DNA from: a virus
IMG/VR virus record: IMGVR_UViG_3300025141_000063
Coordinates: 8,144 to 72,143 of that record
Reading direction: 5' to 3' (one strand)
DNA: 64,000 bases
The position numbers and the translations under genes are program-made. Below the pieces are notes generated by a model. That model was not told the DNA's origin, did no database searches, and saw only the letters and a list, made by a program, of their open reading frames with translations. Below are positions 1-18,277 of this stretch, piece by piece. How positions within the stretch are numbered: position 1 is the stretch's first letter; each line of letters begins with the position of its first letter.

Positions 1-1857
1 GAGCAGGTCGGCGAGGTGGTGCACGGCGCTCTCCATCTCCGGGAGGTAGCCGATGTACATGCGGACGTTCTCGGGCCGCAGGAAGTTGAGGCCGAGGATC
101 TGGTCCACGGTGACCGAGTCGTCGACTTCGAGGGCGTGCTTCACGAGGCAAGTGCGGTGTCCATCGAGCGTGCTGGCGAGGCCCGAGACGGAGGCCGTCT
201 TCTCCCGCTGCACCAGGTCCGCGGGCGTCAAGGACCTGACCCCCTCGATGCGGGTCATGCCCCGGCGCTGCACGCTGGCCAGCTTCTCCTTGGCGTACTC
301 GGGGGCCACACCCATCGCTCCGAGGATGAAGAGGGCGTCCGCCTCCTTCACCTGCTTGAAGTGCTGGCCCTGAACGGTGTCGAGCAGCGGGCTCCGCAGG
401 GTGTAGGTGCCCCCGCCGCCCACGACGTCGACGTAGTCACAGCCGACGCGGGCCTGCTTCTCGATGCCCGCGGCGTCCTTCAGCTCCAACTGCTTGTTGG
501 CGAGCTTCCAGAAACGGAAGAAGGTGGGGACCGCGTAGTGGTTCTCGGCGAGCTTGACCGGGCCGTCCTCCAGGTCGGGGAGGAGCTCCAGGTAGGCCTC
601 CTTGCCGAGGGCCGACTTGACCATGATCATCTGCTGGTCGCCGCGGGCGACCAGACCCTGTACCTCGAAGGGCACGGTGGCCACCTTGGTGCGGGGGTTC
701 ACGAGGTAGCCGAAGCCTTCTACCCTGCTGCTCCCTGTGGGAACGAGCGTGCCTGCCGATTTCGTCGTCGCGTGCACCTCGGGACTCAGCGAGTACCCCA
801 GGTGGCTGTAGGCCAGCTTCACGCCGGGCATGTCGCGGCCGTCGAGGTTGCGGACCTCGGTGTAGACGCCCATCGGGACGCTCCGGTTGGGGGAGTCGTA
901 CATGCCCGCTTCCTTCACCAGGAAGGGCTCGGGGTACTTGGTGTCCTCGTACGTGGTGGCGTGCTTGACGATGGTGAAGGAGTCGTTGGGCTCGAGGTCC
1001 ATGACCTCGTCCCCTGCGATGGCGCGGGCTCGGTCAGCCGGGATCACCTCCATCGCGGGCTCGAAGCTGGAGTGGCTGGCGGCCTTGAGCAGGAAGGTGC
1101 CGTCGTACTGGCGCTCGATCTGCACCACGTCCGGGTCGGTGAAGCGCGGCGATGCCGTCTTCTCCACGCCGGGGCCGTTGGCGATGGCCTGCAGGAAGGG
1201 GCCGACCGACTCGTGCCGCTGAACGGCCCAGGCCGTCGCCGGGTCTTCGAGGGCCGTGGCGATCTTGGCCATGTCGTCCCGATGGAGGGAGCCGGACAGC
1301 ATCAGCGCTTCGAGGAGGAAGGGCGGCTTGCCGGAGGCGTACTTGCCCAGGTTCATGCCCTGGCCCGAGACGCGACCGGGCAGGTGGCCGGCGAAGCCAG
1401 AGTTGTAGCCGGGAGGGAAGAGATCAGAGGCGATGTTCTTGTCCGGCGGTGGCACGTCGGCCCCATCGAACGTCTCCGTCATGTGCATCTCTTCGCGGAT
1501 GCGCTTCTCCGTCAGTGGGCAGGCCGTCTCGCCCCGCATGTAGATGTCGAAGGGGTAGAGCTGCCAGTCCTTGATGATCAGCAGCACGCGCAGGTGGTTG
1601 ACCGGCTTGTTGCCCGCCAGCTCCTTGACGGAGCGCTCGGTGGGGTTCCGGACGGAGACGAACCCGAACCCGTAGCCCTGCGCGGCGTCCAGGTTGGTCA
1701 GGTGCACGTCGATCTCGTAGTCGGCGAGGTACGGGCACTGCTGGGTGACGGCGCTCATGATCACACGCGGCCACTCCGAGGTGTCGCCAGTCATCCGCGT
1801 GAACGGGACCGCGATCTTCTCGAAGGTGAGCTCGGGAGGGGTGACGAACAGTTCCAT
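1..1857 (-). CDS. Putative virion/head-associated protein rich in K-x-A motifs (partial, runs off the window start; absent from the ORF track)
   Basis: Hand translation from ATG 1857 (GGAG RBS just upstream): MELFVTPPELTFEKIAVPF...VDQILGLNFLRPENVRMYIGYLPEMESAVHHLADLL. Open for 619 codons with GC3-biased codons, directly downstream of 1866..2990. Confidence 0.85.
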   Translation of the reverse strand, partial: MELFVTPPELTFEKIAVPFTRMTGDTSEWPRVIMSAVTQQCPYLADYEIDVHLTNLDAAQGYGFGFVSVRNPTERSVKELAGNKPVNHLRVLLIIKDWQLYPFDIYMRGETACPLTEKRIREEMHMTETFDGADVPPPDKNIASDLFPPGYNSGFAGHLPGRVSGQGMNLGKYASGKPPFLLEALMLSGSLHRDDMAKIATALEDPATAWAVQRHESVGPFLQAIANGPGVEKTASPRFTDPDVVQIERQYDGTFLLKAASHSSFEPAMEVIPADRARAIAGDEVMDLEPNDSFTIVKHATTYEDTKYPEPFLVKEAGMYDSPNRSVPMGVYTEVRNLDGRDMPGVKLAYSHLGYSLSPEVHATTKSAGTLVPTGSSRVEGFGYLVNPRTKVATVPFEVQGLVARGDQQMIMVKSALGKEAYLELLPDLEDGPVKLAENHYAVPTFFRFWKLANKQLELKDAAGIEKQARVGCDYVDVVGGGGTYTLRSPLLDTVQGQHFKQVKEADALFILGAMGVAPEYAKEKLASVQRRGMTRIEGVRSLTPADLVQREKTASVSGLASTLDGHRTCLVKHALEVDDSVTVDQILGLNFLRPENVRMYIGYLPEMESAVHHLADLL

Positions 1858-1865
1858 GGGATCTC

Positions 1866-2990
1866 CTATCCTACCTGCACCTTCGAGGACATGGCCAAGG
1901 CCATCGCCTTCGACGAAACCTTCGCGGCAGATACTACCGCAGCACATGAAGCCGGCGTGGGGGTAAGCGCCTGCAGGGCTGTGAGCAAGGGCTGCAGTGC
2001 GGCGTTCAACTCCGTGCCCTTCACGACAGGACTACCACCCCCGGCCAGTTTGAGCGACGTCAGAGTGCCGGAGCTCTTTTCCAGTAGCGCCTCCAGCGCG
2101 CCCCCGTTGGCGCCGAGGTGGATGATGCCGGCGTTCACTTTGAAGCCCGGCGAGTCCGTCTTCACGTCCGTCGCAGCCGAGAGCTTGACCGCCTGGGTAG
2201 TGGACTTGATCTCGACGTCTTCCTTCGCCTGAAGCAAGATCGACTTCTCCGACTTCAGGGACCACGCGCCCTTCAGGACCCAGGACACGCTGCCGTCCTT
2301 TGCGACGTCGAGCTCCACCTGCACCGTCCTCCCGTCCTCCCCCTTGTCGTACACCTTGAGGCTCAGCGCCGAGGACGTCGCGGAATCCCCGTGCTGCCCC
2401 AAGATCAGCTCAGCGAGAGGGTGGGGGTCGTCGGCCTGCTCCTTGGCGAAGATCTTGCACCTGGTGGGCCGGCTGCCGGTGGTCGTAGTCTCGTCCCGAT
2501 CCACCTCCCAGAGGAAGTCCCCTCCGAAGGCACGCAGGTGGTAGCTCTCGCACAGGTCCCGGATGATGTTGTTGATCGGGATGTACATCCGCTGGGCCAG
2601 GGGAGTCGCCTGGATCTGCACCACCCCGCCGCGCCGTACGAACACTGAGTTGCCGTCCCGCGTCCCCAGGTAGATGTCGCCGGGGTTCATGGGGCGACGG
2701 CTGGAGTCGTAGCTGCCCTCCTCGTTCCAGACCATGCCGAACCCGAGGATGAAGGCGCGGTCGCCGATCTCACTGGACTGGCACACCCAACAGGTCGCGC
2801 CCGGCTCCGGCATCACAAACATGCCCTCGCCCTCCGCGTAGTGCACGTAGGGCGCCATCAACGGGATGCGGTCCCACCTGCGGGAGGACGACTGGGACGC
2901 CACGCTGACCGAGTAGCGGGCGACGTTGACGTCGTAGACCACGCCTGTCTCGATGACTGGGGGGCCGAAGACCCCTGTCGCGTGCGACAT
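1866..2990 (-). CDS. Baseplate central spike / gp5-gpV-like protein (N-terminal OB fold, beta-rich C-terminus)
   Basis: GVVYDVN...V.V...IPLMAPY...GMFVMPEPGATCWV resembles the gpV/gp5/VgrG OB-fold signature, followed by short beta-strand repeats. Confidence 0.6.
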   Translation of the reverse strand: MSHATGVFGPPVIETGVVYDVNVARYSVSVASQSSSRRWDRIPLMAPYVHYAEGEGMFVMPEPGATCWVCQSSEIGDRAFILGFGMVWNEEGSYDSSRRPMNPGDIYLGTRDGNSVFVRRGGVVQIQATPLAQRMYIPINNIIRDLCESYHLRAFGGDFLWEVDRDETTTTGSRPTRCKIFAKEQADDPHPLAELILGQHGDSATSSALSLKVYDKGEDGRTVQVELDVAKDGSVSWVLKGAWSLKSEKSILLQAKEDVEIKSTTQAVKLSAATDVKTDSPGFKVNAGIIHLGANGGALEALLEKSSGTLTSLKLAGGGSPVVKGTELNAALQPLLTALQALTPTPASCAAVVSAAKVSSKAMALAMSSKVQVG

Positions 2991-5900
2991 CAGGTGCCCT
3001 TCCGGGCCCAGCCCCTGCGCTTGCGGCGCAGGGCGGGCGGGGTGCGATTGGCCTTGCGTACGCTCTTCAAGATCTTGTCCGTCGTCGCGCTGGGCATCGA
3101 CGGGAGGACCCCGCGCCCCGTCTTGGAGCCCTTGGGGGCGACCCCCTTCAACCCCTTCTCGGGGATGTAGAGGGTGCGGTAGTCCACCGTCACCTCCTCG
3201 CCAGCGTCCAGGTCACGGAGAGCCACCATGAAGCGGGCCTTGCCCTTCTTCTTGACCTCTGCGGTGGGTCGGGGGCTGTGGTTGGTCTTCTTGCCCTCCG
3301 ATGTCTGCATCCCCCGCTCGTCGAAGGCGACGGCGACGGCCTTGCCCTTCTTGACGGGCCCGTCGGTGAAGAAGCCCTTGCCGTGGATCTCGGAGTCTCG
3401 GATGGCTGCCGCCTTCGAGTGCAGGACCGCCTCGGCCGCTCTGGGCGCCTCTGCTCGAGCCTTGGGGTTCGTGATGAACTGGCCCGCCAGCCGAGCCAGC
3501 GCGAGCGCCCCGAGCTCGGACGGAGGCTTCTTGGGCGCCATGCTGTGCAGGGCCGAGAAGTTCCTCGCGTGATCAGGGGAAGACACGAAGGCGTGGAAGG
3601 CGTCCTTGGCTTGGCGGCGGAGGACGGGGTTCTTCTTCACCTGCCCGGCGGCCGAGACCAGCTTCCTGGGGCTGGGAGACCCGAGGAGCGGCAGCACCAG
3701 CTCCCTCAGCTCTCGAGCACGCTTCTCCCTGCCGGAGAGCAGCTTGCCCTGCAGGTGGTCGTCCCAGTCCTTGGCCGTCTTGCCGGACTCGTCGGTGAAG
3801 AAGCCCTTGCCGTGGATCTTGGAAGGAGCGACGGCCGCCTGCTTCTGCAACGGGATCCTGTAAGGCATGACCATCATCTCGTTGTGCAGCTGCTCCTGCA
3901 GCAAGAACTTCGAGGGGAATCGCTGCGGGCGCGCATCGCTCGAAAGGGCGGGCGCCTCCGGGTGCTTCTTTCTCCACGCCGCGTACTGCGCGTGGAGAAT
4001 TTGGTGATGGTCGTCCCCCTCCTTAAAGTCGAACCGAGCGCCAGGGTGCTTGGCCCACGCGGCGGTGCCTTGGTCCGCCGCCAGGATCTTCATGTTCTTC
4101 GCTCCCAACGACCTTCCGGCGCGCAAGCCGGCCTGCATCACCGCTCCCCCGATCCCCTTCTTCCTATGCTCCGGCTTCAAGTACAGGGACGCCCCGTACA
4201 CGTCCCACGTCCCTTTTCGCCTCCGCTTCAAGCTGACAGTGGCGCCGTGAGGCACCGCCCAACTCTTCTGCGTCGCATCACTACCATCGGGCGCCCTGAT
4301 CGGGATAGTGGCGTCGGGAGCCATCACCCCCAGGAAACGACGAGTCTTCACCGGGCCGAAGCTGTAGCCCTCGGGCAACTTCGTCCCGGCAAGCTGCCTC
4401 TCGACGTGCTGCTTCAACACCTTCGGCCGGTCTCGCCACCGCGTCTTCGCCAGCAACTTCGACGCGGTCTTGGACTGCTCCTCGTCCACCTCCTTCTGTG
4501 CGCGACGCCGCATCACCAGGGCGGTCGAGATGCGCTTGCCGCGGACGGCCGCTGTCTTGGGGTTCTTCTGCCCGCGGCGGTAGGCCCCATACGCCAGCGC
4601 TGCCACAGCCAGGGGAACAATGGCGTGCCCCGCCATTGTTCCCGCCCGTCTTCCGATCAGAGCGGCCTTGTCCGGGCCGTGCACCGCCTTGGAGACTGTC
4701 CGCGATGAGTCCTCAAAGTCCACTGGTGCCGTCGCGAAGCCCTCGGGGGTGAGCTTCCCCTTGTACGCCGCGTCGATCAGGTTGCTGCAGGTGTACTCCT
4801 CCCTCTCTCTGGCGCGAATCAGCTTCTTCCCCACCAAGGAGACCGCGGGGTCCGGGGTCAGCATCCCAAGCCCCGTGGCGGCCAGCCCTGTGTTGTCGTA
4901 GTCCTTGCCCACCTGGCGCTCGGCGAAGGTCACCGCACGGCGACGCAGCTTGTCGTTCTTCGGCGCGACGATCTTGTACTTCTTGGTGGCGAGCTGCTTC
5001 CGGATGTCGGTCTTCATGACCCCCTGCCCAATACGGGCCTCAACCATCTCGCCGTCGCCAACGTAGATGCCCGCGTGGGTGAAGCTCCCCTGCAGCGCCT
5101 TCGACGTCGCGACGAACCCGCGGTCGAAGAGCCGCCCTCTGCGCGTGGGCCGCTGGGACTTCTGCGGAGACATGAGCACGATGTCCCCTGGCGCCAGGGC
5201 GTCGAAGTGCTCCTGTGCCATCGCCGTCTTCATCGCCGGGGCCTCGGGTGCTTCAGGGGGCTTCGGAGGCTTCGGGGGCTGTGGCGGCTTGGGCAGCTTG
5301 AAGATCTTGCCGCCGGACTCCACCTGCGCGGCTCCCTGCGGAGCCCCGAACCGGCGGATCTGCTGCCGCAGTGCGGCCGGGGCGTGGACCATGCGCTGAT
5401 CTTGCCCTGCATCGGAGGCGGCAGTCCTCCCTCGTCGAAGCGCGGAGTACGCCTTGTAGGCTGGGTTGCCTCGATACTGCTTCGTCGGGGCGTTCGAGAT
5501 GCCGCCCTTCCGGCGGATGAAGCCGAAGGCCCGCTTCTCCACGGAGGCGGTGACGTCCATCTGGGAAGCCGCCGCAGCGATATTCCTCACCGCCCCGAGC
5601 CGACGGGTGGCGGGCCCGCGCTGTCTGGCCAGGGTAGCCGCGCTCCGCCGCGCGTGGGAGGTCGCCGCGGCCGTGTTGCCCCTAGCCCGCTGCGCGACTG
5701 CGCGGCGGGCATGTCCGTACCCCGTAGGACGGACCAAAGAGACCTTGCCCGTCTGCTGTCTGACCCTCCGTGCCGTAGTTCTGTGCCTGGCGAGGCTCCT
5801 TGCAAGATCTCGCCGCTGAGCAACAGGCCTCATGGCTCCTGCCACGCCAGCTACAAGTCCTGCGCCAGACGCAGATGGGGTGTTGGTAGCCACGTTCGTG

Positions 5901-8077
5901 GCAGCATGGGTCAGCCGAGGCATGCGCCGCGCCGCCGCCCCCCAGAGATCCACGGCCTTGTCGTTGAGGTAACCCGCCTGCTTCTGCATCGAGGCTTCCT
6001 GGGCCTTCCGCTCCCGGCGAGCTCGGAGGAGGCGGTGCACTCCGTACCCTGCCAGCGCCGTCCCACCGATGACTGCCCCGCCGATGGCCATCTGCCTGCC
6101 TGTCGGACGCCATCCGGTGCGAGGAGCTGCGGAAGTCGTTGCCGGGGCAGTCGTCGGAGCGGGACGAGATGCGACCACCTTCTCCGCGACCTGCTTCGCT
6201 ACAGGGTTGGCCGGGCGAGAGGCCACCACCTTCGCAGCAGCCTGCTGAGCCACTGGAGCTGCGGCCGGGGCTACGACCTTCTTCGCAACCGCCTGGGCGG
6301 CGGGAGCAGCCGCGGGGCGGGACGCTACGACCTTCTCTGCCGCCCGCCTCGCTACTGCAGGAGCGGGCTTGGCCGCCGCTTCCTGAGCCTTTGCAGCGGC
6401 AGCGTCCCGCTGCTTCTTGAAGGTAACGGGGTCGATGCCGGCCCTTCGGGCAGGGCGCTCGATGTCCCGGTGATACCTCTGGTTCTCCAGAGTCTGCTTG
6501 TGCCAGAGCATCTCCTCTTTCGGCCTGCCCGTCCTGACCTTCTCCTGGAGGAACTCATGCAACTCCCTGTGCCGGTGCTCCACCGGGCCCGCTCGATTCT
6601 TGAGCAGGTGTCGACTGCGCTGAAGTTGCGCCTTGTCCCACTTATCGCCGCCTTCGCGGACCTTCTTCTCGAGGTCCCGGCTGTCCAGGTACTCCAGCCG
6701 CTTGTACGTCTGCACGTCCTGGCGGGACGGTCCTCCCGGCCTCCACTCCGGCTCAGCAGGTCGCGTGAGCGTCGAGGGATCCCGATTTCGCAGGTACCGG
6801 GGCTTCCCGGCCGTCTTCTCCAGATCGGGGAAGGTACGATCCGTCACCTTCGAGCGTAGAGACTTCGCATACTCCAATAGCCTCCGACGGTTCTCAGGGG
6901 TGTCCTCCATCTTCGCCGTCGCCCATAGAGGGGCCAGGCGATTGGCCGAATCACGCTCGTTCGGGTACAGCTGCACGTCGAAAGCGTCCCCCGCCCTCCG
7001 CATGCGTACGTTCGGCTTGTCGAGCAGCACCTTGTTCGTTCTGGAGGAGACGTCCCCCAAGTGCCTCTCGGGCCCGTCTCTCTTCTCGAACCACTTCTCC
7101 AGCTCACTCCATGGCAAGTCTGGGGTTGGAGGCAGCCTTTCCTGCCCCTTGAAGTGGAAGTCTCGACTCTGGTTGTCTAGCGCCTGCGCGACTCCGCCGA
7201 AGTACTCCGGAACAGGCTTCATGGCGTGATAGCCCCTACCCGCCAGGGCCCCTACTCCTCCCCCAACTCCAGCGCCGATGAGGCCCCGCTTCAGCTTCTT
7301 GCCCTTCTCCGCGCTCGTGGCACCGACGGCGGCTCCCGTCGCTGCACCGAGGCCCGCGCCTACCAAGGTGCGCTTGTGCTTGGACGTCAGCGGCACCCAC
7401 GCCTCCTTCACGGTCTCCCCCGGCTCCTGCAGCACCTTCGCCACCATCTCCTGCACGAGCGCCCACAGCCCCTCACGAGTAGCAACTGCCGGTTGACGTT
7501 CTCCCATGGGTGCGGGGGATTCCGGAAAATCGGTCCGCAGGTGCGAGGCGATTGCACGGACCTGGTCCATGTCGAGCTCAGTGAAGCCTCGGCCCTTGTT
7601 CAGGTTCTGCAGCCACTCCGCCGTATGCCGAGGCGTGCTGTACCGCCGCTCTTTCCACAGCTGTGGATGGAGGCTGTGGGGAACTCCGTGTCGAGTGAAG
7701 AGGGCGATGGTCTGGTCGAGGCCAAACTTGTCGCAGGCCATCTCGAGGTGGATGGTCGGGCGGAAGTCCCGGAGGTACTCCTCGTCGGTACGAGCGTCGA
7801 TGACGTGCCCGAGGTCGTGGTACCCGGACCAGGCCCGGTCCTCCAGGGAGACGGGGACACCCCGCCGGCGCATGGCGAGGTAGATGACCTTGTTGACCTC
7901 GTCCTGCGCGGCGTAGCTGGGCATGTCCTCCAGCACCGTCAGGTCGTAGTCGTACTTCGCCAGCTCCCCCTCCAGGTTCGAGAGCACGAGCTTCCATGCT
8001 CGGCCCTCCTCCGCTTCGGGAGGACGCGCTTCCGCGGCCCCCGTCTTGACGAAGGAGGTCAGGTCGTCAGTACGCAT
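2990..8077 (-). CDS. Multi-domain polyprotein (zincin-like, glycine-zipper modules, permuted NlpC/P60, GNAT, SET), modules delimited by K-x-A
   Basis: Likely start ATG 8077 (MRTDDL) overlapping the RNAP stop. Motifs HDLGH...EMACDKF; PGDIVL...THAGIY...YTCSNL; LYLKPEHRKKGIG; IHGKGFF...NHS...GEEVTVDY. Confidence 0.85.
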   Translation of the reverse strand: MRTDDLTSFVKTGAAEARPPEAEEGRAWKLVLSNLEGELAKYDYDLTVLEDMPSYAAQDEVNKVIYLAMRRRGVPVSLEDRAWSGYHDLGHVIDARTDEEYLRDFRPTIHLEMACDKFGLDQTIALFTRHGVPHSLHPQLWKERRYSTPRHTAEWLQNLNKGRGFTELDMDQVRAIASHLRTDFPESPAPMGERQPAVATREGLWALVQEMVAKVLQEPGETVKEAWVPLTSKHKRTLVGAGLGAATGAAVGATSAEKGKKLKRGLIGAGVGGGVGALAGRGYHAMKPVPEYFGGVAQALDNQSRDFHFKGQERLPPTPDLPWSELEKWFEKRDGPERHLGDVSSRTNKVLLDKPNVRMRRAGDAFDVQLYPNERDSANRLAPLWATAKMEDTPENRRRLLEYAKSLRSKVTDRTFPDLEKTAGKPRYLRNRDPSTLTRPAEPEWRPGGPSRQDVQTYKRLEYLDSRDLEKKVREGGDKWDKAQLQRSRHLLKNRAGPVEHRHRELHEFLQEKVRTGRPKEEMLWHKQTLENQRYHRDIERPARRAGIDPVTFKKQRDAAAAKAQEAAAKPAPAVARRAAEKVVASRPAAAPAAQAVAKKVVAPAAAPVAQQAAAKVVASRPANPVAKQVAEKVVASRPAPTTAPATTSAAPRTGWRPTGRQMAIGGAVIGGTALAGYGVHRLLRARRERKAQEASMQKQAGYLNDKAVDLWGAAARRMPRLTHAATNVATNTPSASGAGLVAGVAGAMRPVAQRRDLARSLARHRTTARRVRQQTGKVSLVRPTGYGHARRAVAQRARGNTAAATSHARRSAATLARQRGPATRRLGAVRNIAAAASQMDVTASVEKRAFGFIRRKGGISNAPTKQYRGNPAYKAYSALRRGRTAASDAGQDQRMVHAPAALRQQIRRFGAPQGAAQVESGGKIFKLPKPPQPPKPPKPPEAPEAPAMKTAMAQEHFDALAPGDIVLMSPQKSQRPTRRGRLFDRGFVATSKALQGSFTHAGIYVGDGEMVEARIGQGVMKTDIRKQLATKKYKIVAPKNDKLRRRAVTFAERQVGKDYDNTGLAATGLGMLTPDPAVSLVGKKLIRAREREEYTCSNLIDAAYKGKLTPEGFATAPVDFEDSSRTVSKAVHGPDKAALIGRRAGTMAGHAIVPLAVAALAYGAYRRGQKNPKTAAVRGKRISTALVMRRRAQKEVDEEQSKTASKLLAKTRWRDRPKVLKQHVERQLAGTKLPEGYSFGPVKTRRFLGVMAPDATIPIRAPDGSDATQKSWAVPHGATVSLKRRRKGTWDVYGASLYLKPEHRKKGIGGAVMQAGLRAGRSLGAKNMKILAADQGTAAWAKHPGARFDFKEGDDHHQILHAQYAAWRKKHPEAPALSSDARPQRFPSKFLLQEQLHNEMMVMPYRIPLQKQAAVAPSKIHGKGFFTDESGKTAKDWDDHLQGKLLSGREKRARELRELVLPLLGSPSPRKLVSAAGQVKKNPVLRRQAKDAFHAFVSSPDHARNFSALHSMAPKKPPSELGALALARLAGQFITNPKARAEAPRAAEAVLHSKAAAIRDSEIHGKGFFTDGPVKKGKAVAVAFDERGMQTSEGKKTNHSPRPTAEVKKKGKARFMVALRDLDAGEEVTVDYRTLYIPEKGLKGVAPKGSKTGRGVLPSMPSATTDKILKSVRKANRTPPALRRKRRGWARKGT
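3361..3819. repeat. Exact 30-nt direct repeat (3361-3390 and 3790-3819) encoding IHGKGFFTD
   Basis: cgtcggtgaagaagcccttgccgtggatct is present twice, with mismatches immediately outside both ends. Confidence 0.95.
6160..6350 (-). repeat. Four imperfect peptide repeats A(E/K/A)KVVA(SRPA) in an Ala/Pro-rich linker
   Basis: AEKVVASRPA / AKKVVAPAA / AAKVVASRPA / AEKVVASRPA in the translation. Confidence 0.8.
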
Positions 8078-11000
8078 AGGGCTTCTTCTTCGTGCCCTTG
8101 CCGAACTCCGTGCCCCTGACAAGGCCGGGGATGGGACTGGTCCCGTGCAGGTCAGACTTCCAGCCCTGCGCGCCGCCTTCCATGAAGGTCTTCTTCAGCT
8201 CGCGGTAGTTGAGGCGGGACATCCAGTCCTCGGAGCCCGCCATGGACACCTCCTGGACACCCTTGAGGATCGGGGTGATCTCTGCCTTCTGCCCCCCGCC
8301 CTTGCCGATGTCCCTGTTCGCCCGCTGCAGCTTCGTGGTCGACACGACGTCGCCCCGAAGGAAGCCGGAGTCGCCGGGCTGCCGGACCGAGGAGAGGTTG
8401 GTGAGGGTGCGGACCACGGTCTCCATGTTCCTCTTCTTCACCCTGCCACCGTAGGCGCCGTGCATCTCGTCGGTGAGGTAGCCCTTGACGCTCTCGATGC
8501 CTGCCACTTCGAGCAGGTGGTGCGGGTTGACGGGCCCGGAGGATAGCGCCTCGCCCAGGCCGACGGGGATCATCATCTTCCCGCGCAGCCCCTCCATCAC
8601 CTTGGCGGTGGGCTTGTTGCGGGCGGGGATGTAGTGGTCCTTCGGCTCCGGGTGGTACTTGCCGAACCGGTCCTTACCCCTGATGTAGACACGCCAGCCG
8701 CCGGCAGGGTCTGCGGATGTCCGCATGATCTCCCCCTTGTACGAGGAGATGGTGGCCTGGCCAGGTACCTTCTTTGTCAGGTGCAGCAGCTGCCCCAGCC
8801 GGGTGAAGGAGTCCGTGCGGTTCGTCTCGCCCTTGCTCACGACGCCGCCGGTGTGGAAGGCGTTCATCGAGAGCTGGGTCGCGGGCTCCCCGATGGCCTG
8901 GGATGCCCAGATGCCGACGTTCGACCCCATGGAGGGCTTCTTCCCGGCCTCGGTCACGCCGTAGCACATGGCGCAGATGCCCTCGGACTGCTCGCACTTC
9001 AACGGGGAGCGCACCAGGACCATCTCGACGCCGGAGTTCTTGATGCGCGTCAGCACCTCGGCGGTCAGCAGGGTCTTCGAGGGGACGTCCCCTCGCTTCA
9101 GCTTCACGGGGGCGGCGGCATACCTGTCGTGGATCTCCGGGTCACCAGTGGACATCAGCACGCCCTGCGTCGTCCCGCAGTCCTGTGACGTGATGATCTG
9201 GTTCATGGTGGCGCTGACCAGGTCCTTGGTCAGCTCGCCCGGTGCCTGGGTGCCCTTGACCTTGCCGAGGGTGCCCATGCGAGCGCCTGACAGGGACGCC
9301 CAGTACTCCGCCGCGCTGAGCCCCTCGGAGTAGCTCTTCTTGATGGGGATGGGGACCGCAGACCCGTTGGGGTCTGTGACGAGCACGGGGGCCAGGGTGA
9401 GCTGCTTGAACTGGTCCCAGTTGCCACGAGCTCCCGACTCCACCATCTCGTACATGCGGTTGCCGGAGCCCTTCATCTTCGCCTGACCCTCGACGTTGAT
9501 GTCCTCGAGGGCAGTCATGTACGCCTCGACCACCGACTCGTCGCGGCTCTTCCCGCCCTTCTGCAGCGCCAGCGCCTTCTTGTCCGCCTTGGCGAAGTGC
9601 TTGTCGCGTATCTCGGGGCGGGACAGGACGTCCTGCAGACTGAAGGAGAAGCCGGTGTCGTAGGTGTACTTGTTGCCGAGCTGGTTCAGCTTGTTGACCG
9701 TGACCGAGAAGCCCTTCGGGTCTCGCTTCGCCATCTTGGTGAGCAGCTTCTCCACCTCCCGGCTCTTCAGCACCAGCGTCTTGTCCGTGAGGACCTTCTG
9801 CCGCTCCAAGGAACTCGAGGGGAAGCAGTTGGAGAGCATCAGCCGGCCCACCGTGGTCTGAACCATCCCGGCCTGCTTGACCAGTGAGGGCTCGGGCAGG
9901 TAGCTCGCCACGCCCTTGGGCAGCCGCCAGGAGCTGGCAGTCTTGGTGATCTGCGAAGAGCCGACGGTGATCACGTCCGAGATGCCCAGCTTGCCCTTCT
10001 TGTACGCCTTCATCGCCTCGTCGGCGGTGCCGAAGGAGCGCTTGCTGTCCTTGCCCCACTTGCTCAGTTGGTACAGCCCGAGCTGTGCCTCCTGCCCGGG
10101 CAGGTTCATCAGGCCACCGGACGACGCGCTGAACAGGTTGTTCGAGGGCACCATCCCTCGCGCTTCCTCGATGGCTTCCTCTGTCAGGGGGACGTAGACC
10201 GAGGTGGTGTCGCCGTCGAAGTCTGCGTTGAACCCGGAGACCACGAGCGGATGGATCTGGATCGCTTTGCCCTTCACCAGCTTCGGGTTGAACGCCATGA
10301 TGCTGTGCTTGTGCAGGACGGGGTCGCGCTTCATCATCACCGGCCGCTTCTTGACGACCTCCTCCAGCGCACGGACTGCGACCGGGTCGTTCTTCTTCAC
10401 CGCCAGCTGCGCCTGCAGAGGGGAGTAGCCGAAGACCTGCACCAGCTCTCGCACGATGAAGGGCTTGTACATCTGCATCGCGGCCTTGCTGGGCAGCCCC
10501 ACCTCGTCCAGGTCCATCGACTGCTCGGGGATGATCGTGGACCGCATGGACAGGTCCATCTTGCGGCCGATCATCTTGCTCTGGAAGTAGCCGGACTTGG
10601 GCTGGGATCCCTTGACCGTCTCGAGCACACCGCGGTAGTGCCTGCCCTGGTACTTCTGCCCGTCCATGGTCAGCGCCTTGAGCCCGTCGTAGAGCTCCTT
10701 GTAGAGCGGCACCTTCTGGCTGGGCGGCAGACCTGTGTCGAAGTCCTTGAGCTTCTGGTTGGTGAGGGAGAGGCCGCGGTAGAGCTGGTTCACATCCGCC
10801 GACGTCGTGGCTCCGCTGTCCAGCACGGAGACCGGCCGGAACTTCGGAGGCATGATCGGAATGTGCTTCCGCATGTAGGCCTCGTCCGGAGACATCCCCG
10901 TCTCCTTGAGGGCCTGGAGGTAGCGGACGCGCCGGCGCAGCTTGCTGAGCTTGTACTTCCGGGCTCCCTTCAACTCCTGCAGCGTCTTCGTCAGCTCCTT

Positions 11001-14000
11001 GTCGATGTCGATCTTCTTCAGGGCGTCCTGGATCGCCTCGGTGCCTGTGCCTGTGCCGATTGTCTTCTCGTGCCCGATGACCTGCTCCATCTCGCCCCGC
11101 TTGAGGTCGAGCAGGGAGGAGATGGCGGTCTCGAACATCGGGTTGGGCAGGGCGACGTCCAGGGTCATGTGTCCCCAGGACTGCTGCGCTGCGTGCTCGG
11201 GGTGGAGCGAGCCGAAGATCTTCTCGTCGAAGATGCCGCCCTTCTCCGCCTTCATGTCCTTGCCTCGGAACATGCGGCCGGGGTCGGTGACGCCCCCGTT
11301 GCTCAGCTTCAACACGTCCTTGTCCACGAGGGGCTTGAGGTGGAGCTGGTTGCCCCGCTTCTCCGTGTCGAGGCCCATCGTCTTCAGGTAGCCCTCGAAC
11401 TTCTCGTAGGTGAACGGGATCTTGGGAGGGGGCAGCGCCTGTCCGGAGTGGAGGGCGTTCCACATGTCGGGGTTGTAGTCCGACTTGAGGGTGAACATCT
11501 CCCGCAGGTTGTGGCGGGCTCCGTGAGCCAGCATGGCGTACACACCCAGGCCGCCCAGGGCCTGTGCGCTGGAGCCGCCGCCGCCCTTGGGGGACATGTC
11601 CAGGCTGTAGGGAGACCCGGTGCCACCGGCGCGGGCGGTCATCTTCTTGGCGACCTTGTGCTTGAGCTTGAGGATGTACTGGTTCCCCACCAGCACCTCG
11701 CCCATCGCCTTGCCCGTGGTCGGGTCGAAGAGGGTCTCGTTGTCGGACAGGCCGTGCTCCTTCAGCTCTCGCTGAATCTCCCGGCCGTAGTCCGCCTTCC
11801 CCTCCTGGGGGAAGTTGTCCACGAGGTAGGGCTTGCCCGTCTTCTCTGAGATCTTCCCGGCCAAGGTCTCCAGCACCTGGCCGACGTTGATGCGGGAGGG
11901 GACGCCGTGGGGGTTCAGGGCGACATGGATCTGCCGACCGTCCTTGGTGGCGGGCATCTCCTTATCCTGCATGACGCGGGAGATGATTCCCTTGTTGCCG
12001 TGCCGGCCGACCAACTTGTCGCCGACCTGCGCCGGCTCCTCCGTCTTGATGTGGACCTCGATCTTCTTCTGGGTCTTGATCACCCGGACGACCCTGCCCT
12101 TGTAGCCCTTGTCCCAGAGCACCGCGCGGTTGGCGTAGTCCTGCACCTTCGAGCGCTTCAGCGCCTGGTAGGCCGCGGCCTCCGACCCGATCTCTCGGAG
12201 CTGCAGCTTGGCGATGAGCAGGTCGCCCTCCTCCACCAGCTCGCCGTCCTTGATGACCCCAGAGGGGTCCAGCTTCGCGGTCTGTGCCGTGGTCACTGTC
12301 CCGGGGGAGACATGCGCCAAGTACTTGTCGCGGCTCATCACCGAGTTGCGGTCGAGCGACGCGTCCACCCGGTACATGTGGAGGCTGGTCAGCATCGTGG
12401 AGGCGGTCTGGGAGATGACCACCCCGTCCTCGTAGTTGTAGCCCTTGAAGGGGACGTAGCCGACCCGAAGGTTCTTGCCGATGGCGAAGGTGCCCTTGTC
12501 GGTGAAGTTGGTGTCCGCCAGGAGCTGTCCCCGCTTCACCCTGTCGCCCACCTTCACGCGCATGTGCGCCTCGATGTAGGCCTCGTCCTGGTTGAGGGGG
12601 AAGTCCTTGTAGACCTGGACCGTGTGGTTGTCCCCGTCGGGATCCTGGATGGTCACAGCGTCCTTCACGATCTGCACCACCTTCCCGTCGACCGGGGCCT
12701 GGTGGGAGTTGAAGGACCCCATGATGTTCTCGAAGGTAGTCCCCGACTCCGTCGCTGTCTGGACCATCGGGGCTTCCCGATGCTTCAGGGAGACCGCCTG
12801 TTCCTGCTGCCGGGAGGCAGTCATGGTCCGGTTGCCCTGGTTGTTGTGCAGGAAGGGGATCAGGTTCGTGGGCAGGGAGTACATCGCCTTGGACGAGAGC
12901 ATCACGTGCGTGACCTCGTTCCACGGGCGCATCATCACCTCGTTGCCCGTGCCGGCGACCGCCACGTTCTTCGGGTCCTTCGGCAGCGGCATCTCCCCGG
13001 ACCACTTCACCTGGTCAGCGAAAGCGATGATGTAGTTCTGGAAGTCCTGCGGCTTGACCTTCTCAATCGACTTGGTCTTCTTGTTGTACAGCTGCACCAG
13101 CAGCCCCAGCCCCTTCTTCTCCACGCCGATGGGGAGCTGCAGGGTGATGCCTGTCTTCGCTCCTTCAGGGGTGGTGATGGGGTCCAGGTAGGTGAGGTGG
13201 CTGTCGTTGATCCGCAGGGCTTCCTTCGGCACCTTCTGCGGGTCGGAGATGGCGCCGGGCCCCATGATCGTGGTTCGCATCTGCCCGGACACGAACTCCA
13301 GGGGGTTCGTCTGGTTGGGGAGCTGCGCCAGCGACGTGGAGAAGAAGGAGTTCAGGGGCTTGCCGAAGACCGCGGGGTTCACGATCTCTCGGACCTTCAT
13401 CTTCTGTCCGTCGAGCCCCTGCCTCAGGCGGCGCCCGATCTCCCCGCGGGAACGGTGCAGCCGGTCAGCGAGGTGGTCCTCGGTGGACAGGATGTCCTTG
13501 AAGGCCAGAGACTCTCGGTCGTCCGGCTTGATGTCCCCTCGTGCCAGGCCGAGCAGCTTCTTCGAGGAGGTCAGCATCGCCTCCCCGTTGACCACGTTGA
13601 AGGACTTGCCCAGCGTGAGCTTGGTGCTGTCCTCCCGGAGCTCCGCGGCAGCCATGGTCTCCCGGACCGCGGTGCGCGCCTCGTCGAGGTCCTTGGCCAC
13701 GTGGCCCGTCGTCCTCTTCAGCACCTTGTTCAGGGACTGGAGCTGCTTCTTGTCGTCCCCGAACTTGCTCACCGAGGCGTCGTAGATGTCCTTGCCCCAC
13801 GCCTTCTTGATCTTGTCGTCGGACTCCCCCATCGCACGGAGCACGGGGTACAGGCCGATGTTCTCCATCGTCCCGAACTTCAGGGTGAAGACCCGCTCCT
13901 TGGGGTTGAAGAAGGACCAGAAGCGGTCGGCCTTGGCGCCGTCCCACTTGTTGATGTTCCACTGGGTGACCAGGCGTCCGGCCTCGTCCTCCCGGTGGTA

Positions 14001-14360
14001 GACGCCCGACTTCAGGCGGAACTGGTTGTCGACCTGCCGCTCCTTGCCGTCGACGATGTACGAGTAGCGGCGGGTGATCTTGGGGACGCGGGCGACGGTG
14101 ATCGTCGAGCGGTCCAGGACATCGCCAGTGGCCTTGTCGATCAGGGAGACTCTGGCCTTGACGGGGACTGCCCAGGTCCCGCCCTGCAGCTTCGCGTGCT
14201 GTTGGGATCTGATGTCGTCGAGCTCTAGGTTGTCGTCGACCCAGACCTTGTCCATCTCGAGCCGTCGGTTCTGCCCCTCGAATGGGAAGTGGTCCCCCAC
14301 GGCTTTCGCCACGCGGGTCTTCATGATCTCGAAGGCACCTTCTGGGTCAAGCTGGGCCAT
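8067..14360 (-). CDS. rpoBC: Phage single-chain DNA-directed RNA polymerase, fused beta and beta' subunits
   Basis: Beta motifs TPEG, GDKLVGRHGNKG, LNPHGVPSRINVGQ, YILKLKH...KMTAR. Beta' motifs GGIFDEKIFG, PPKFRP, RDPVLH, NADFDGD (10209-10229), RSPLKC...GICAMCYG, QAIGEPATQLSMNAFHTGG. Confidence 0.97.
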   Translation of the reverse strand: MAQLDPEGAFEIMKTRVAKAVGDHFPFEGQNRRLEMDKVWVDDNLELDDIRSQQHAKLQGGTWAVPVKARVSLIDKATGDVLDRSTITVARVPKITRRYSYIVDGKERQVDNQFRLKSGVYHREDEAGRLVTQWNINKWDGAKADRFWSFFNPKERVFTLKFGTMENIGLYPVLRAMGESDDKIKKAWGKDIYDASVSKFGDDKKQLQSLNKVLKRTTGHVAKDLDEARTAVRETMAAAELREDSTKLTLGKSFNVVNGEAMLTSSKKLLGLARGDIKPDDRESLAFKDILSTEDHLADRLHRSRGEIGRRLRQGLDGQKMKVREIVNPAVFGKPLNSFFSTSLAQLPNQTNPLEFVSGQMRTTIMGPGAISDPQKVPKEALRINDSHLTYLDPITTPEGAKTGITLQLPIGVEKKGLGLLVQLYNKKTKSIEKVKPQDFQNYIIAFADQVKWSGEMPLPKDPKNVAVAGTGNEVMMRPWNEVTHVMLSSKAMYSLPTNLIPFLHNNQGNRTMTASRQQEQAVSLKHREAPMVQTATESGTTFENIMGSFNSHQAPVDGKVVQIVKDAVTIQDPDGDNHTVQVYKDFPLNQDEAYIEAHMRVKVGDRVKRGQLLADTNFTDKGTFAIGKNLRVGYVPFKGYNYEDGVVISQTASTMLTSLHMYRVDASLDRNSVMSRDKYLAHVSPGTVTTAQTAKLDPSGVIKDGELVEEGDLLIAKLQLREIGSEAAAYQALKRSKVQDYANRAVLWDKGYKGRVVRVIKTQKKIEVHIKTEEPAQVGDKLVGRHGNKGIISRVMQDKEMPATKDGRQIHVALNPHGVPSRINVGQVLETLAGKISEKTGKPYLVDNFPQEGKADYGREIQRELKEHGLSDNETLFDPTTGKAMGEVLVGNQYILKLKHKVAKKMTARAGGTGSPYSLDMSPKGGGGSSAQALGGLGVYAMLAHGARHNLREMFTLKSDYNPDMWNALHSGQALPPPKIPFTYEKFEGYLKTMGLDTEKRGNQLHLKPLVDKDVLKLSNGGVTDPGRMFRGKDMKAEKGGIFDEKIFGSLHPEHAAQQSWGHMTLDVALPNPMFETAISSLLDLKRGEMEQVIGHEKTIGTGTGTEAIQDALKKIDIDKELTKTLQELKGARKYKLSKLRRRVRYLQALKETGMSPDEAYMRKHIPIMPPKFRPVSVLDSGATTSADVNQLYRGLSLTNQKLKDFDTGLPPSQKVPLYKELYDGLKALTMDGQKYQGRHYRGVLETVKGSQPKSGYFQSKMIGRKMDLSMRSTIIPEQSMDLDEVGLPSKAAMQMYKPFIVRELVQVFGYSPLQAQLAVKKNDPVAVRALEEVVKKRPVMMKRDPVLHKHSIMAFNPKLVKGKAIQIHPLVVSGFNADFDGDTTSVYVPLTEEAIEEARGMVPSNNLFSASSGGLMNLPGQEAQLGLYQLSKWGKDSKRSFGTADEAMKAYKKGKLGISDVITVGSSQITKTASSWRLPKGVASYLPEPSLVKQAGMVQTTVGRLMLSNCFPSSSLERQKVLTDKTLVLKSREVEKLLTKMAKRDPKGFSVTVNKLNQLGNKYTYDTGFSFSLQDVLSRPEIRDKHFAKADKKALALQKGGKSRDESVVEAYMTALEDINVEGQAKMKGSGNRMYEMVESGARGNWDQFKQLTLAPVLVTDPNGSAVPIPIKKSYSEGLSAAEYWASLSGARMGTLGKVKGTQAPGELTKDLVSATMNQIITSQDCGTTQGVLMSTGDPEIHDRYAAAPVKLKRGDVPSKTLLTAEVLTRIKNSGVEMVLVRSPLKCEQSEGICAMCYGVTEAGKKPSMGSNVGIWASQAIGEPATQLSMNAFHTGGVVSKGETNRTDSFTRLGQLLHLTKKVPGQATISSYKGEIMRTSADPAGGWRVYIRGKDRFGKYHPEPKDHYIPARNKPTAKVMEGLRGKMMIPVGLGEALSSGPVNPHHLLEVAGIESVKGYLTDEMHGAYGGRVKKRNMETVVRTLTNLSSVRQPGDSGFLRGDVVSTTKLQRANRDIGKGGGQKAEITPILKGVQEVSMAGSEDWMSRLNYRELKKTFMEGGAQGWKSDLHGTSPIPGLVRGTEFGKGTKKKPYAY

Positions 14361-17407: not shown

Positions 17408-18277
17408 CTATGCCGCCTTCTTCGAGAGGAGCCACGCGAACTCTTGCGCCTGCTCAGCTTCTTGTTGACGCCTCATCATCATGTAGTTGTGCGCCACCAG
17501 CAGCTTCGCACAGACCACGTCCTCCGGAACATCGTCGCTCAGGTCAGGCTCCTCGCCCGTCTCCCCCAGCATCTGCCTCCACCGAGCAGCGACGGCCCGG
17601 GGATCATTCTTGAAGTGGCGCTCGATGTTCCGGCCCACATCGTCCGGGATGCCGCGAGCAGGCTTCAGGTTCAGTGACCTCTCGTCCATGTCGGGGTCGA
17701 ACCGGCCGACGCAGACGTCGCACCTGCCGTCGGCGAGGTCGTCGTCGTCCTCGTTCCCGCAGTCCGTGCAGACATAGGTGGGCTGTGCCACCAGCCGCTG
17801 TGCGAAGGACAGGGGCGCCGGGAGGAACCAGACGCCCCTCTCCATGGCGGAGGCCGCCACGAAGCGTCCGACCTCCTCCTCGTAGGGGTGCTTGCGGATG
17901 TCCGACACCATATCCACGGCCGCCATCATCTGCGCCACCGTGGGCTGCTGGAGCGTGAAGAAGTCGGGGATGTTGTTGTTCAGCGCCTGGGTCAGCGGGG
18001 AGAAGACCTCCCACACGGACCAGAAGCCATCGGCCACCAGCAGGTTGCGCACCGCCTGGATCTTGTTCTTGTTGAGGGCACTCACCGTCACCGCGTGCGG
18101 GCGGGAGTAGTGCATCTGGAAGCGGGACGAGAAGTCCTGCTCGATCTCGTACCAGAGGGCCTCCGAGTCCCACTCGAGCCAGTCCACTCCGAACTGCGCG
18201 AACAGCAGTCCCGCCAGCACGGCGGGGTGCGCGTCGTGGTAGCCGAAGAAGAGAGCTGGTGCCTCAGGAAGAGCCAC
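17408..18277 (-). CDS. Hypothetical protein (CTDC/CDVC zinc finger), adjacent to portal
   Basis: 289-aa ORF abutting the portal gene on the same strand. Confidence 0.75.
   Translation of the reverse strand: MALPEAPALFFGYHDAHPAVLAGLLFAQFGVDWLEWDSEALWYEIEQDFSSRFQMHYSRPHAVTVSALNKNKIQAVRNLLVADGFWSVWEVFSPLTQALNNNIPDFFTLQQPTVAQMMAAVDMVSDIRKHPYEEEVGRFVAASAMERGVWFLPAPLSFAQRLVAQPTYVCTDCGNEDDDDLADGRCDVCVGRFDPDMDERSLNLKPARGIPDDVGRNIERHFKNDPRAVAARWRQMLGETGEEPDLSDDVPEDVVCAKLLVAHNYMMMRRQQEAEQAQEFAWLLSKKAA

Follow-up and report, generated by a model that had tools for sequence, protein, structure and literature searches.

A phage polyvalent protein whose modules are exchanged at Lys-x-Ala joints, candidate cutting sites of a T4/herpes-type head protease

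The gene considered here lies on the reverse strand of a 64,000-nucleotide stretch of DNA (the window) that covers bases 8144-72143 of the 72,143-base IMG/VR virus record IMGVR_UViG_3300025141_000063, derived from a phage; CheckV estimates the completeness of this record at 38%, which implies a genome size near 190 kb. The gene codes for a polyvalent protein, in which a tripeptide of the form Lys-x-Ala (K-x-A, in places K-x-G) recurs between modules of different kinds. A first-pass annotation, made from the letters of the window alone, had read it as an effector polyprotein that would be packaged as a precursor, released by cleavage after K-x-A and injected. The open reading frame (ORF) spans 2990..8122 (-) and comprises 1710 open codons from a TTG at 8122, from which the residue numbers of motifs and modules are counted below. 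The start codon is likely the ATG at 8077 (M16), as homologues share the same Met and begin MRTE/D. The gene and the modules of its product, the latter with their residues in brackets, are arranged as follows:

2990..8077 (-), candidate polyvalent cargo gene, 1695 amino acids (aa) from the ATG at 8077, stop codon at 2990-2992; product identical to database protein P0003
8039..8077 (-), N-terminal leader of 13 residues (16-28) ending F-V-K-T-G; FVKTG/FVKTS kept in the homologues P0004 and P0005
7400..8038 (-), Module 1 (29-241), conserved, with an invariant H-D-x-x-H, ending in KEA; nine strong family members
6809..7399 (-), Module 2 (242-438), Gly-zipper and a region of unknown nature, ending in KTA; missing from P0004 and P0005
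5975..6808 (-), Module 3 (439-716), basic, with Ala/Pro-rich repeats and a transmembrane-like helix, ending in KQA; 65% identity with P0004
5528..5974 (-), Module 4 (717-865), Arg-rich, ending in KRA; missing from P0004
5222..5527 (-), Module 5 (866-967), conserved, with a PQPPKPP linker and KTA at its end; common to P0004 and P0005
4661..5221 (-), Module 6 (968-1154), probable permuted papain-like amidase (Peptidase_C92 / NlpC-P60), ending in KAA at 1152
4550..4660 (-), Module 6b (1155-1191), hydrophobic helix peptide, ending in KTA
4463..4549 (-), Module 7 (1192-1220), short basic peptide, ending in KTA; common to P0004 and P0005
3836..4462 (-), Module 8 (1221-1429), GNAT acetyltransferase (Pfam PF00583), ending in KQA
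3773..3835 (-), Module 9 (1430-1450), a "SET stub", i.e. a copy of the first strand of SET, ending in KTA
3407..3772 (-), Module 10 (1451-1572), probably helical, ending in KAA and containing the K-x-A at 1467 and 1506
3116..3406 (-), Module 11 (1573-1669), SET-domain methyltransferase (Pfam PF00856), ending in KTG
2993..3115 (-), basic C-terminal tail (1670-1710); kept in P0004 and P0005

The eleven tripeptides on which the first-pass annotation had relied were all recovered at the places it had given, namely KTG at residue 26, KEA at 239, KTA at 436, KQA at 714, KRA at 863, KTA at 965, 1189 and 1218, KQA at 1427, KTA at 1448 and KAA at 1570. These are a selection, as the whole ORF contains 14 K-x-A and 9 K-x-G, among which the K-x-A at 585, 1152, 1467 and 1506 and eight of the K-x-G had not been listed; only K-[TQ]-[AG] is over-represented in it (9 seen against 2.85 expected). 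As far as homology and Pfam spans can tell, the listed sites avoid folded domains, the Pfam-matched stretches (249-296, 1008-1077, 1295-1350 and 1595-1648) containing 0/11 of them.

Comparison of the window protein (P0001) with its two close homologues P0004 (1100 aa) and P0005 (1647 aa) revealed that the three have in common the N-terminal domain, the C-terminal SET domain with its tail and some of the inner modules. Between these the homologues carry other modules (precomputed Pfam InPase PF18823 and DUF5661 PF18905), and P0005 has further stretches without counterpart in either P0001 or P0004. The sites at 239, 436, 714, 863, 965, 1218, 1427 and 1570 are exact joints of an insertion, deletion or replacement in P0004 or P0005, and the site at 26 is the conserved end of the N-terminal leader. 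The earlier statement that the motifs fall where the character of the sequence changes is thus borne out by homologues at eight sites and fails at 1448; at 1189 the comparison with P0004 is less clean. The KAA at 1152, absent from the earlier list, is probably a further breakpoint, judging from homology to the more distant polyvalent proteins P0006 and P0007, which stops about 6 residues past it.

The individual joints illustrate how precise the exchange is. In P0004 a segment ending in EKMA is directly joined to GKPRYL, a sequence that in the window protein comes ~200 residues further on, behind EKTA; likewise, QKQA is directly joined to FGFIR in P0004, the Arg-rich module being skipped. Module 5 is followed by a different module after the K-x-A in P0004 and P0005, while the GNAT module begins right after KTA, KEA or KAA in three homologues, with different upstream modules in P0005, and the SET domain begins after KAA, KKA and KQA in P0001, P0004 and P0005. 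At every shared joint the K and the A are kept and x differs (KEA/KMA/KTA, KTA/KEA/KAA and KQA/KKA/KQA), and the downstream modules of all three proteins start at the residue next to the Ala. P0006 and P0007 also differ from one another by whole modules, at SKTA/SKTG and KKEA. In the SET region of the window protein an insert can be traced: the first SET strand is duplicated (3773-3835 and 3344-3406), so that a stub, a 122-residue module and then the full SET domain succeed one another, and as the same SET sequence is continuous in P0004, the insert must have entered within or beside the SET N-terminus. The joints are therefore real, and related phages have acquired, dropped or exchanged modules directly behind the Ala.

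A count of alignment breakpoints agrees with this. Internal BLAST breakpoints lie within ±7 residues of a K-x-[AS] in both partners in 15/27 cases (null at most 0.206, p=6.9e-5) and within ±5 residues in 12/27 (p=3.5e-4). The count uses five close homologue pairs, which supply 27 of the 83 internal ends, the 56 noisier ends of distant pairs being excluded; its p-values are indicative only, since BLAST ends are fuzzy and not independent (P0003, P0004 and P0005 share joints). The swapping of modules at K-x-A that the first-pass annotation had anticipated for homologous loci can accordingly be seen both in the alignments of P0001, P0004 and P0005 and in this count. We also considered a recombination signal at the DNA level and rejected it, for no longer nucleotide motif common to the joints was found and synonymous codons vary (ACG/ACC/ACA for the middle residue where it is Thr; GCG/GCC/GCA for the Ala), indicating that the signal resides in the protein. 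Beyond the close homologues, a tblastn search of 50,697 phage records with P0001 gave no match. A separate observation on duplication comes from G002, a close relative of the window phage, whose locus L091 (4465-7032, -) codes for an 855-aa virion-region protein with an internally duplicated module of about 60 residues; both copies start right after a K-x-A (KTA-MFFDLD and KEA-MFYDLD).

With respect to the identity of the modules, the GNAT and SET labels of the first-pass annotation stand, both matches exceeding their Pfam gathering cut-offs (PF00583: 23.3 bits against 20.7, residues 1295-1350; PF00856: 23.3 bits against 22.4, residues 1595-1648), while its NlpC/P60 and Gly-zipper labels refer to matches below the cut-offs. 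For Module 6 these are Peptidase_C92 (PF05708: 23.7 bits, cut-off 27, E=5.5e-5) and NlpC/P60 (PF00877: 17.6 bits, cut-off 23, E=3.8e-3); the module also matches phrog_1128 at E=1.2e-11, PF05708 is precomputed on the homologues P0006 and P0007, and the one marginal match of P0001 to the PDB, a cell-wall hydrolase (E=0.18), falls here. The Gly-zipper_YMGG match covers residues 249-296 (22.4 bits, cut-off 28.9, E=1e-4). The label that found no support is "zincin-like" for Module 1, whose motif in the window protein is H-D-L-G-H and not HExxH, and which has no Pfam, PHROG or PDB match (a PDB profile search gave 0 matches at E<=10); an AlphaFold model built from a 3-sequence alignment has a predicted local distance difference test (pLDDT) score of 44.5, too low to serve as fold evidence for or against a zincin. 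The "about 10 interchangeable effectors" of the earlier description are likewise overstated, as recognisable enzyme folds occur in only three modules, namely the C92-type amidase, GNAT and SET; the Gly-zipper, transmembrane, basic or short-peptide modules may act in ejection or at the membrane instead of being effectors.

Module 1 nevertheless defines a small family, present in all three close homologues, with nine strong members among 1.84 billion representatives (the three query-profile proteins and P0011-P0016). A K-x-[AS] comes after the domain in 9/9 of these. Its place is near the C-terminus in P0015 and P0016, which makes Module 1 itself a movable unit. The protein thus combines at least two unrelated catalytic or effector domains (GNAT and SET) in one phage chain, and its domain content varies among P0001, P0004 and P0005 while the context remains unchanged, both of which are hallmarks of polyvalent proteins.

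The genes around the polyvalent gene bear on what it might do. Those that matter for the following are:

8067..14360 (-), single-chain beta-beta' RNA polymerase (RNAP), 2097 aa, directly upstream; its stop overlaps the polyvalent start
1866..2990 (-), p374, conserved downstream gene, 374 aa; found directly after the RNAP in most relatives
1..1857 (-), p664, two genes downstream, 664 aa, continuing beyond the window edge (record 8006-10000); 20/32 Lys in K-x-A
18264..19853 (-), P0008, 529 aa; 15/34 Lys in K-x-A, with a Gly-zipper insert starting just after WEKTA
record bases 2097-3686, outside the window (locus L008) (-), free-standing SNF2 helicase; leader ends FEKLA

The RNAP chain contains Rpb2_6 (Pfam, E=7e-61) together with Rpb1 domains 1-5, and, as an observation apart, two such tripeptides, KTA and KQA, occur within its beta' part at a distance of 22 residues from each other (residues 1473-1497; window 9870-9944, -). 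The SNF2 helicase and the large terminase are found further along the record, past p664. Among IMG/VR we found 198 relatives of p664, of which 80 loci were kept for analysis; in these 80 related loci, 71 ORFs are single-chain RNAPs adjoining virion genes. The 65 loci with both RNAP and p374 show a gap of at most 22 nucleotides (nt) between the two in 49 cases and inserts of 338-4483 nt in the remaining 16. As p374 directly follows the RNAP in most relatives, the polyvalent gene fills a variable slot between the RNAP and conserved virion genes. The flanking genes are 60-87% identical between the window record (G000) and a syntenic record (G001). At third codon positions the GC content is 0.82 in the polyvalent gene but 0.88-0.93 in the flanking RNAP, p374 and p664, which fits a younger or mosaic origin.

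Several small proteins encoded in this slot in other loci (L010, L012, L043 and L078) open with a leader that fits E-[LF]-x-K-[LI]-[AS], the Lys being at 13-15. The F-V-K-T-G leader of the polyvalent protein, with Lys 11 counted from the Met, is of a similar kind, as are those of p664, P0008 and the SNF2 helicase. Moreover, P0007, from another phage, contains directly behind a KEA an embedded module that shares 54% identity with this free SNF2 helicase. Candidate cargo units thus either stand free behind a leader or are strung together behind a K-x-A. These contexts also speak to the idea that the polyvalent protein is no virion cargo at all and is instead an intracellular multi-domain protein that lies in a late operon by chance, for which the failure of tblastn with P0001 to find a match in the phage collection might be cited. 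Its gene, however, has the RNAP on one side and virion genes on the other, and the virions of a cultured relative contain RNAP subunits in abundance (see below); its leader resembles those of head proteins; and its probable cell-wall amidase and membrane-active modules are typical of ejected proteins. We regard an intracellular role as quite improbable.

The same tripeptide pervades other proteins of these phages. In p664 the 20/32 Lys in K-x-A correspond to p=4e-14, with no signal at the control offsets K+1 and K+3 or for R-x-A, and in P0008 the 15/34 correspond to p=1e-5, its G001 homologue having 14/25; besides these three, no called gene in G000 or G001 reaches p<1e-3. The aligned homologues of p664 are enriched in K-x-A in 28/28 cases, down to 22% identity (p 7e-14 to 1.1e-3), with two sites invariant and the others turning over. 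Across the 80 loci, 101/1079 ORFs are enriched (p<1e-3), namely 57 p664 homologues and 44 others, the latter mostly just past the terminase.

AlphaFold gives p664 a confident fold that is rich in beta structure and helical at the C-terminus. Foldseek found 0 matches for this model in the PDB at E<=0.001, and a wide VIA-align search gave a best Z of 6.6, for the C-terminal helices only; in BFVD only an uncharacterised homologue was recovered (E=1.4e-47), and the ESM Atlas returned no usable match for p664 or P0008. P0008 itself shows a weak DUF6582 match, and its Gly-zipper is an insert relative to the G001 homologue.

The breadth of the motif bears on which enzyme might read it. One could suppose that the enzyme cutting at K-x-A is a peptidase embedded in the polyvalent protein (the C92 module or the H-D-x-x-H domain) or one supplied by the host, acting either ahead of packaging or once the protein has been injected; Iyer et al. 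indeed propose embedded metallopeptidases as releasing enzymes (PMC5512222), and the H-D-x-x-H domain occurs in all three close homologues. Against this, the motif is equally strong where the slot is empty (49/65 loci; the p664 homologues enriched in 28/28), suggesting that its reader should be a core gene. In addition, the H-D-x-x-H domain lacks HExxH and any detectable peptidase relative, and in P0015 and P0016 it is an ordinary module near the C-terminus. We accordingly give an embedded or host peptidase only a slim chance.

A candidate for such a core gene is present in the relatives. Two to four genes past the terminase they encode a 560-790-aa protein whose first ~250 residues match PHROG 18299, "head maturation protease" (E=3.6e-6 in L024, 4.6e-6 in L012 and 1.2e-7 in the 754-aa protein of G002). 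This match is made by 10/30 family members; the G002 protein matches the family profile at E=2.1e-71, and the family is present in ~40 related loci. With a member of this family tblastn reaches gp222 of Salmonella phage Arash, Vibrio D69-group phages, phage G gp19 (E=5e-12) and gp13 of Gordonia phage Stormageddon, the last annotated as a capsid maturation protease; for phage G gp19 a published listing likewise gives head maturation protease (PMC12484599). The fold class of the putative protease, T4 gp21 / herpes-assemblin type, is inferred. Members carry K-x-[AS] at residues 22-41 in 30/30 cases, and most have GADK[TI]AK..K[IL]A where the catalytic domain ends. The family also has an S-M-G motif whose Ser is nearly invariant. 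The remark of the first-pass annotation that the protease is not in the window proved correct: in relatives including G002 the homologue sits past the terminase, just beyond which the record of the window phage ends, and this explains why it is not seen.

In G002 the terminase is followed by a 334-aa protein (10/22 Lys in K-x-A), two small membrane-like proteins (K-x-A at 15 and 11), the protease homologue, an acidic scaffold-like protein of 383 aa (12/27), three more proteins and the capsid protein (PHROG 2522, E=3.9e-12), which has K-x-A at residue 29. A K-x-A within the first 37 residues occurs in 7/9 head-module proteins against 8/46 others (Fisher p=8e-4), and five of these eight others adjoin the head module. 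Distinct capsid-protein homologues have K-x-A at residues 23-31 in 20/20 cases, with x varying; one capsid ORF with an over-long start call shows it at 54. The motif thus recurs in capsid, scaffold-like, protease and internal proteins, in the first three of these 11-41 residues from the N-terminus, and often closes an N-terminal leader, the pattern expected of prohead-protease substrates. As judged from these sequences, K-x-A is a clade-wide mark of head-module proteins and fits a prohead-protease site.

An altogether different function of the motif, as a site of Lys modification, cross-linking or binding (a target of SET or GNAT, or a docking site for a chaperone or scaffold), would suit the p664 model, whose sites lie in regular secondary structure, and the presence of the lysine-modifying folds SET and GNAT in the polyvalent protein. 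Yet SET and GNAT are accessory and found only in a few polyvalent proteins, whereas the motif is clade-wide; its placement near N-termini (11-41 residues in), on the protease too and on either side of that enzyme's catalytic domain, fits propeptide processing; and it coincides with module boundaries. Such a function thus seems very unlikely to be the explanation.

A cultured relative, though a distant one, is available in Salmonella phage Arash (OQ632216.1), an orphan myovirus of 180.8 kb (PMC10585845). The relationship is indicated by RNAP matches, by a capsid protein of 28% identity and by a protease domain of 35.5% (gp222), and Arash gp220-gp226 have an N-terminal K-x-A in 7/7 proteins. Arash differs from the window phage in that its RNAP is split into subunits rather than forming a single chain, and in that tblastn with P0001 found no polyvalent homologue in it. 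Its virion proteome, as reported, includes the RNAP subunits and a helicase, both abundant (PMC10585845), which makes the packaging of enzymes encoded next to them plausible for the clade.

Taking these lines together, we favour the reading that the gene encodes a polyvalent virion-cargo protein processed at K-x-A by a head protease of the T4/herpes type, to which we assign a probability of roughly 0.6 on the strength of the sequence comparisons. K-x-A would be the recognition site (Lys at P3, Ala at P1) of the clade's own T4 gp21 / herpes-assemblin-type protease, with the cut placed after the Ala because new modules always begin at the next residue; the P1' residue that follows is often Ser, Ala or Thr. 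The N-terminal leader would carry the whole chain into the prohead, where the protease would split it into its modules, that is the cell-wall amidase, GNAT, SET and the membrane-active Gly-zipper and transmembrane pieces, and the released modules would leave the capsid together with the DNA. The more general proposal, that a large and scarcely studied clade of phages of ~180-200 kb possesses a K-x-A head protease and uses one leader to load exchangeable cassettes that are cut at every joint and injected in pieces, is one that we put forward tentatively, at a little under even odds.

Several observations weigh against this reading. Taken by itself, K-x-A shows no enrichment within the polyvalent ORF (14/133 Lys, with an Ala frequency of 0.145; binomial p=0.93). 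The site at 1448 is no breakpoint, as the homology of P0005 continues across the KTA, and those at 1467 and 1506 lie inside one module, so that not all K-x-A can be joints; 585 is perhaps no joint either. In p664 the AlphaFold model (pLDDT 76.6) places 12/20 K-x-A in strands or helices, matching the background of 0.57; if the model is right, a folded protein would need cutting within its secondary structure, or else the motif has a further role there. The assignment of the protease rests on weak profile matches (E ~1e-6 to 1e-7), and a PDB profile search with the family gave 0 matches at E<=10. Pfam and PHROG scans of the neighbouring genes in G000 and G001, both incomplete records, showed no protease, and a search of the two for Peptidase_S78 likewise found nothing. 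Finally, several Arash proteins with an N-terminal K-x-A are listed with 100% coverage in the virion table of the proteome report (PMC10585845); if reliable, this would mean that the leader peptides were still in the preparation, but the metric is uninformative on cuts and neither supports nor refutes processing.

The missing enrichment in the ORF can also be cited for a polyvalent protein that works uncut, its K-x-A joints being scars of the leaders of free cargo genes that were fused and kept as flexible joints. The free-standing slot proteins and the SNF2 gene do carry leaders of the K-x-A type, polyvalent proteins transferred as full-length polypeptides are cited by Iyer et al. (PMC5512222), and N4 virion RNAP and TraC1-type proteins are reported to work uncut. 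Mere scars, however, would hardly account for the retention of K and A at shared joints while x and the flanks vary, both in homologues of 65-79% identity and in the distant P0011-P0016; and if the protease reads K-x-A in other head proteins, the exposed joints of a co-packaged chain should be cut too. We consider the uncut protein unlikely, although it deserves more credit than the other alternatives weighed above.

Proteolysis of proheads at a consensus site is textbook knowledge for T4-type and phiKZ-type phages, T4 gp21 recognising L/I-x-E and phiKZ gp175 likewise being a consensus-site prohead protease. The SPN3US enzyme gp245 cleaves behind A-x-E, strips off N-terminal propeptides and favours Ser at P1'; it makes several cuts per propeptide and processes itself (PMC10052503). 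The clade resembles these systems in having a three-residue code repeated in many head proteins, where it would serve the removal of N-terminal propeptides (capsid, portal and ejection proteins in the known phages). It differs in the code itself, as the T4, phiKZ and SPN3US proteases cut after Glu and neither L/I-x-E nor A-x-E but K-x-A is the motif found here. A further difference is that nearly all the SPN3US cuts described remove N-terminal propeptides (PMC10052503), whereas in the window protein the sites would separate a dozen modules. Herpes assemblin, which in pseudorabies virus (PrV) cuts YLQA-T and VQA-S, is alike in cutting after Ala before a small P1' residue and unlike in that P3 is not Lys in these quoted sites (PMC4498786). 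It also resembles the 560-790-aa protease proteins of the clade in that the enzyme is joined to scaffold sequence, with its own sites on either side. A PDB profile search linked the clade protease to assemblin neither by sequence nor by a solved structure.

The closest precedent for the cargo chain is the class of polyvalent proteins defined by Iyer et al. in 2017, which likewise combine many unrelated domains in one chain, including peptidase or amidase and GNAT domains, in a late or virion context (PMC5512222). These authors predict delivery with the DNA, and propose both release by peptidases and the analogy with RNA-virus polyproteins (PMC5512222), so that this analogy, drawn again in the first-pass annotation, was already in print, as was the notion of a virion-delivered multi-effector polyprotein as such. 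They describe the zincin-like metallopeptidase as the commonest, though not obligatory, hub domain (PMC5512222). The releasing enzymes in their account are embedded zincin-type, assemblin-like or other peptidase domains, and the available text names no fixed motif between modules (PMC5512222). In the window protein, by contrast, the joints carry a tripeptide shared with head proteins, and the likely enzyme is the product of a separate core gene; it also has a SET domain, a term absent from the main text of that paper (PMC5512222).

A full-text literature search for K-X-A together with phage, protease and capsid returned no paper, and no K-x-A rule was found in the accessible portion of the literature on prohead-protease motifs and on phage G. 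What is new here is the Lys-x-Ala code, its employment to join the units of a putative cassette-like cargo chain and the clear record of swapping at that joint in three close relatives. If the cuts are real, K-x-A would join the codes of T4 and of phiKZ-type phages, where cutting is after Glu, as a third kind read by prohead proteases, and many effector modules would enter the capsid on one leader to be separated inside. This would explain how anti-host functions are swapped fast, the three relatives having three module sets at one locus. It would also provide a simple predictor of packaged proteins in hundreds of uncultured genomes, and a route for loading foreign proteins into the capsids of cultured relatives such as Arash. 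The "leader plus cut-site" arrangement would in that case amount to a natural, programmable grammar of cargo delivery for dsDNA phages. If the cuts are not real, the gene reduces to one more polyvalent protein with tidy linkers.

Elsewhere in the window, at 38347-61916 (-), very large Lys-poor ORFs of 1836, 1565, 761, 2142 and 920 aa follow one another in a row. Probably tail or fibre proteins, they are nearly without Pfam or PHROG matches, save for one weak PKD match, and K-x-A is over-represented in none of them.

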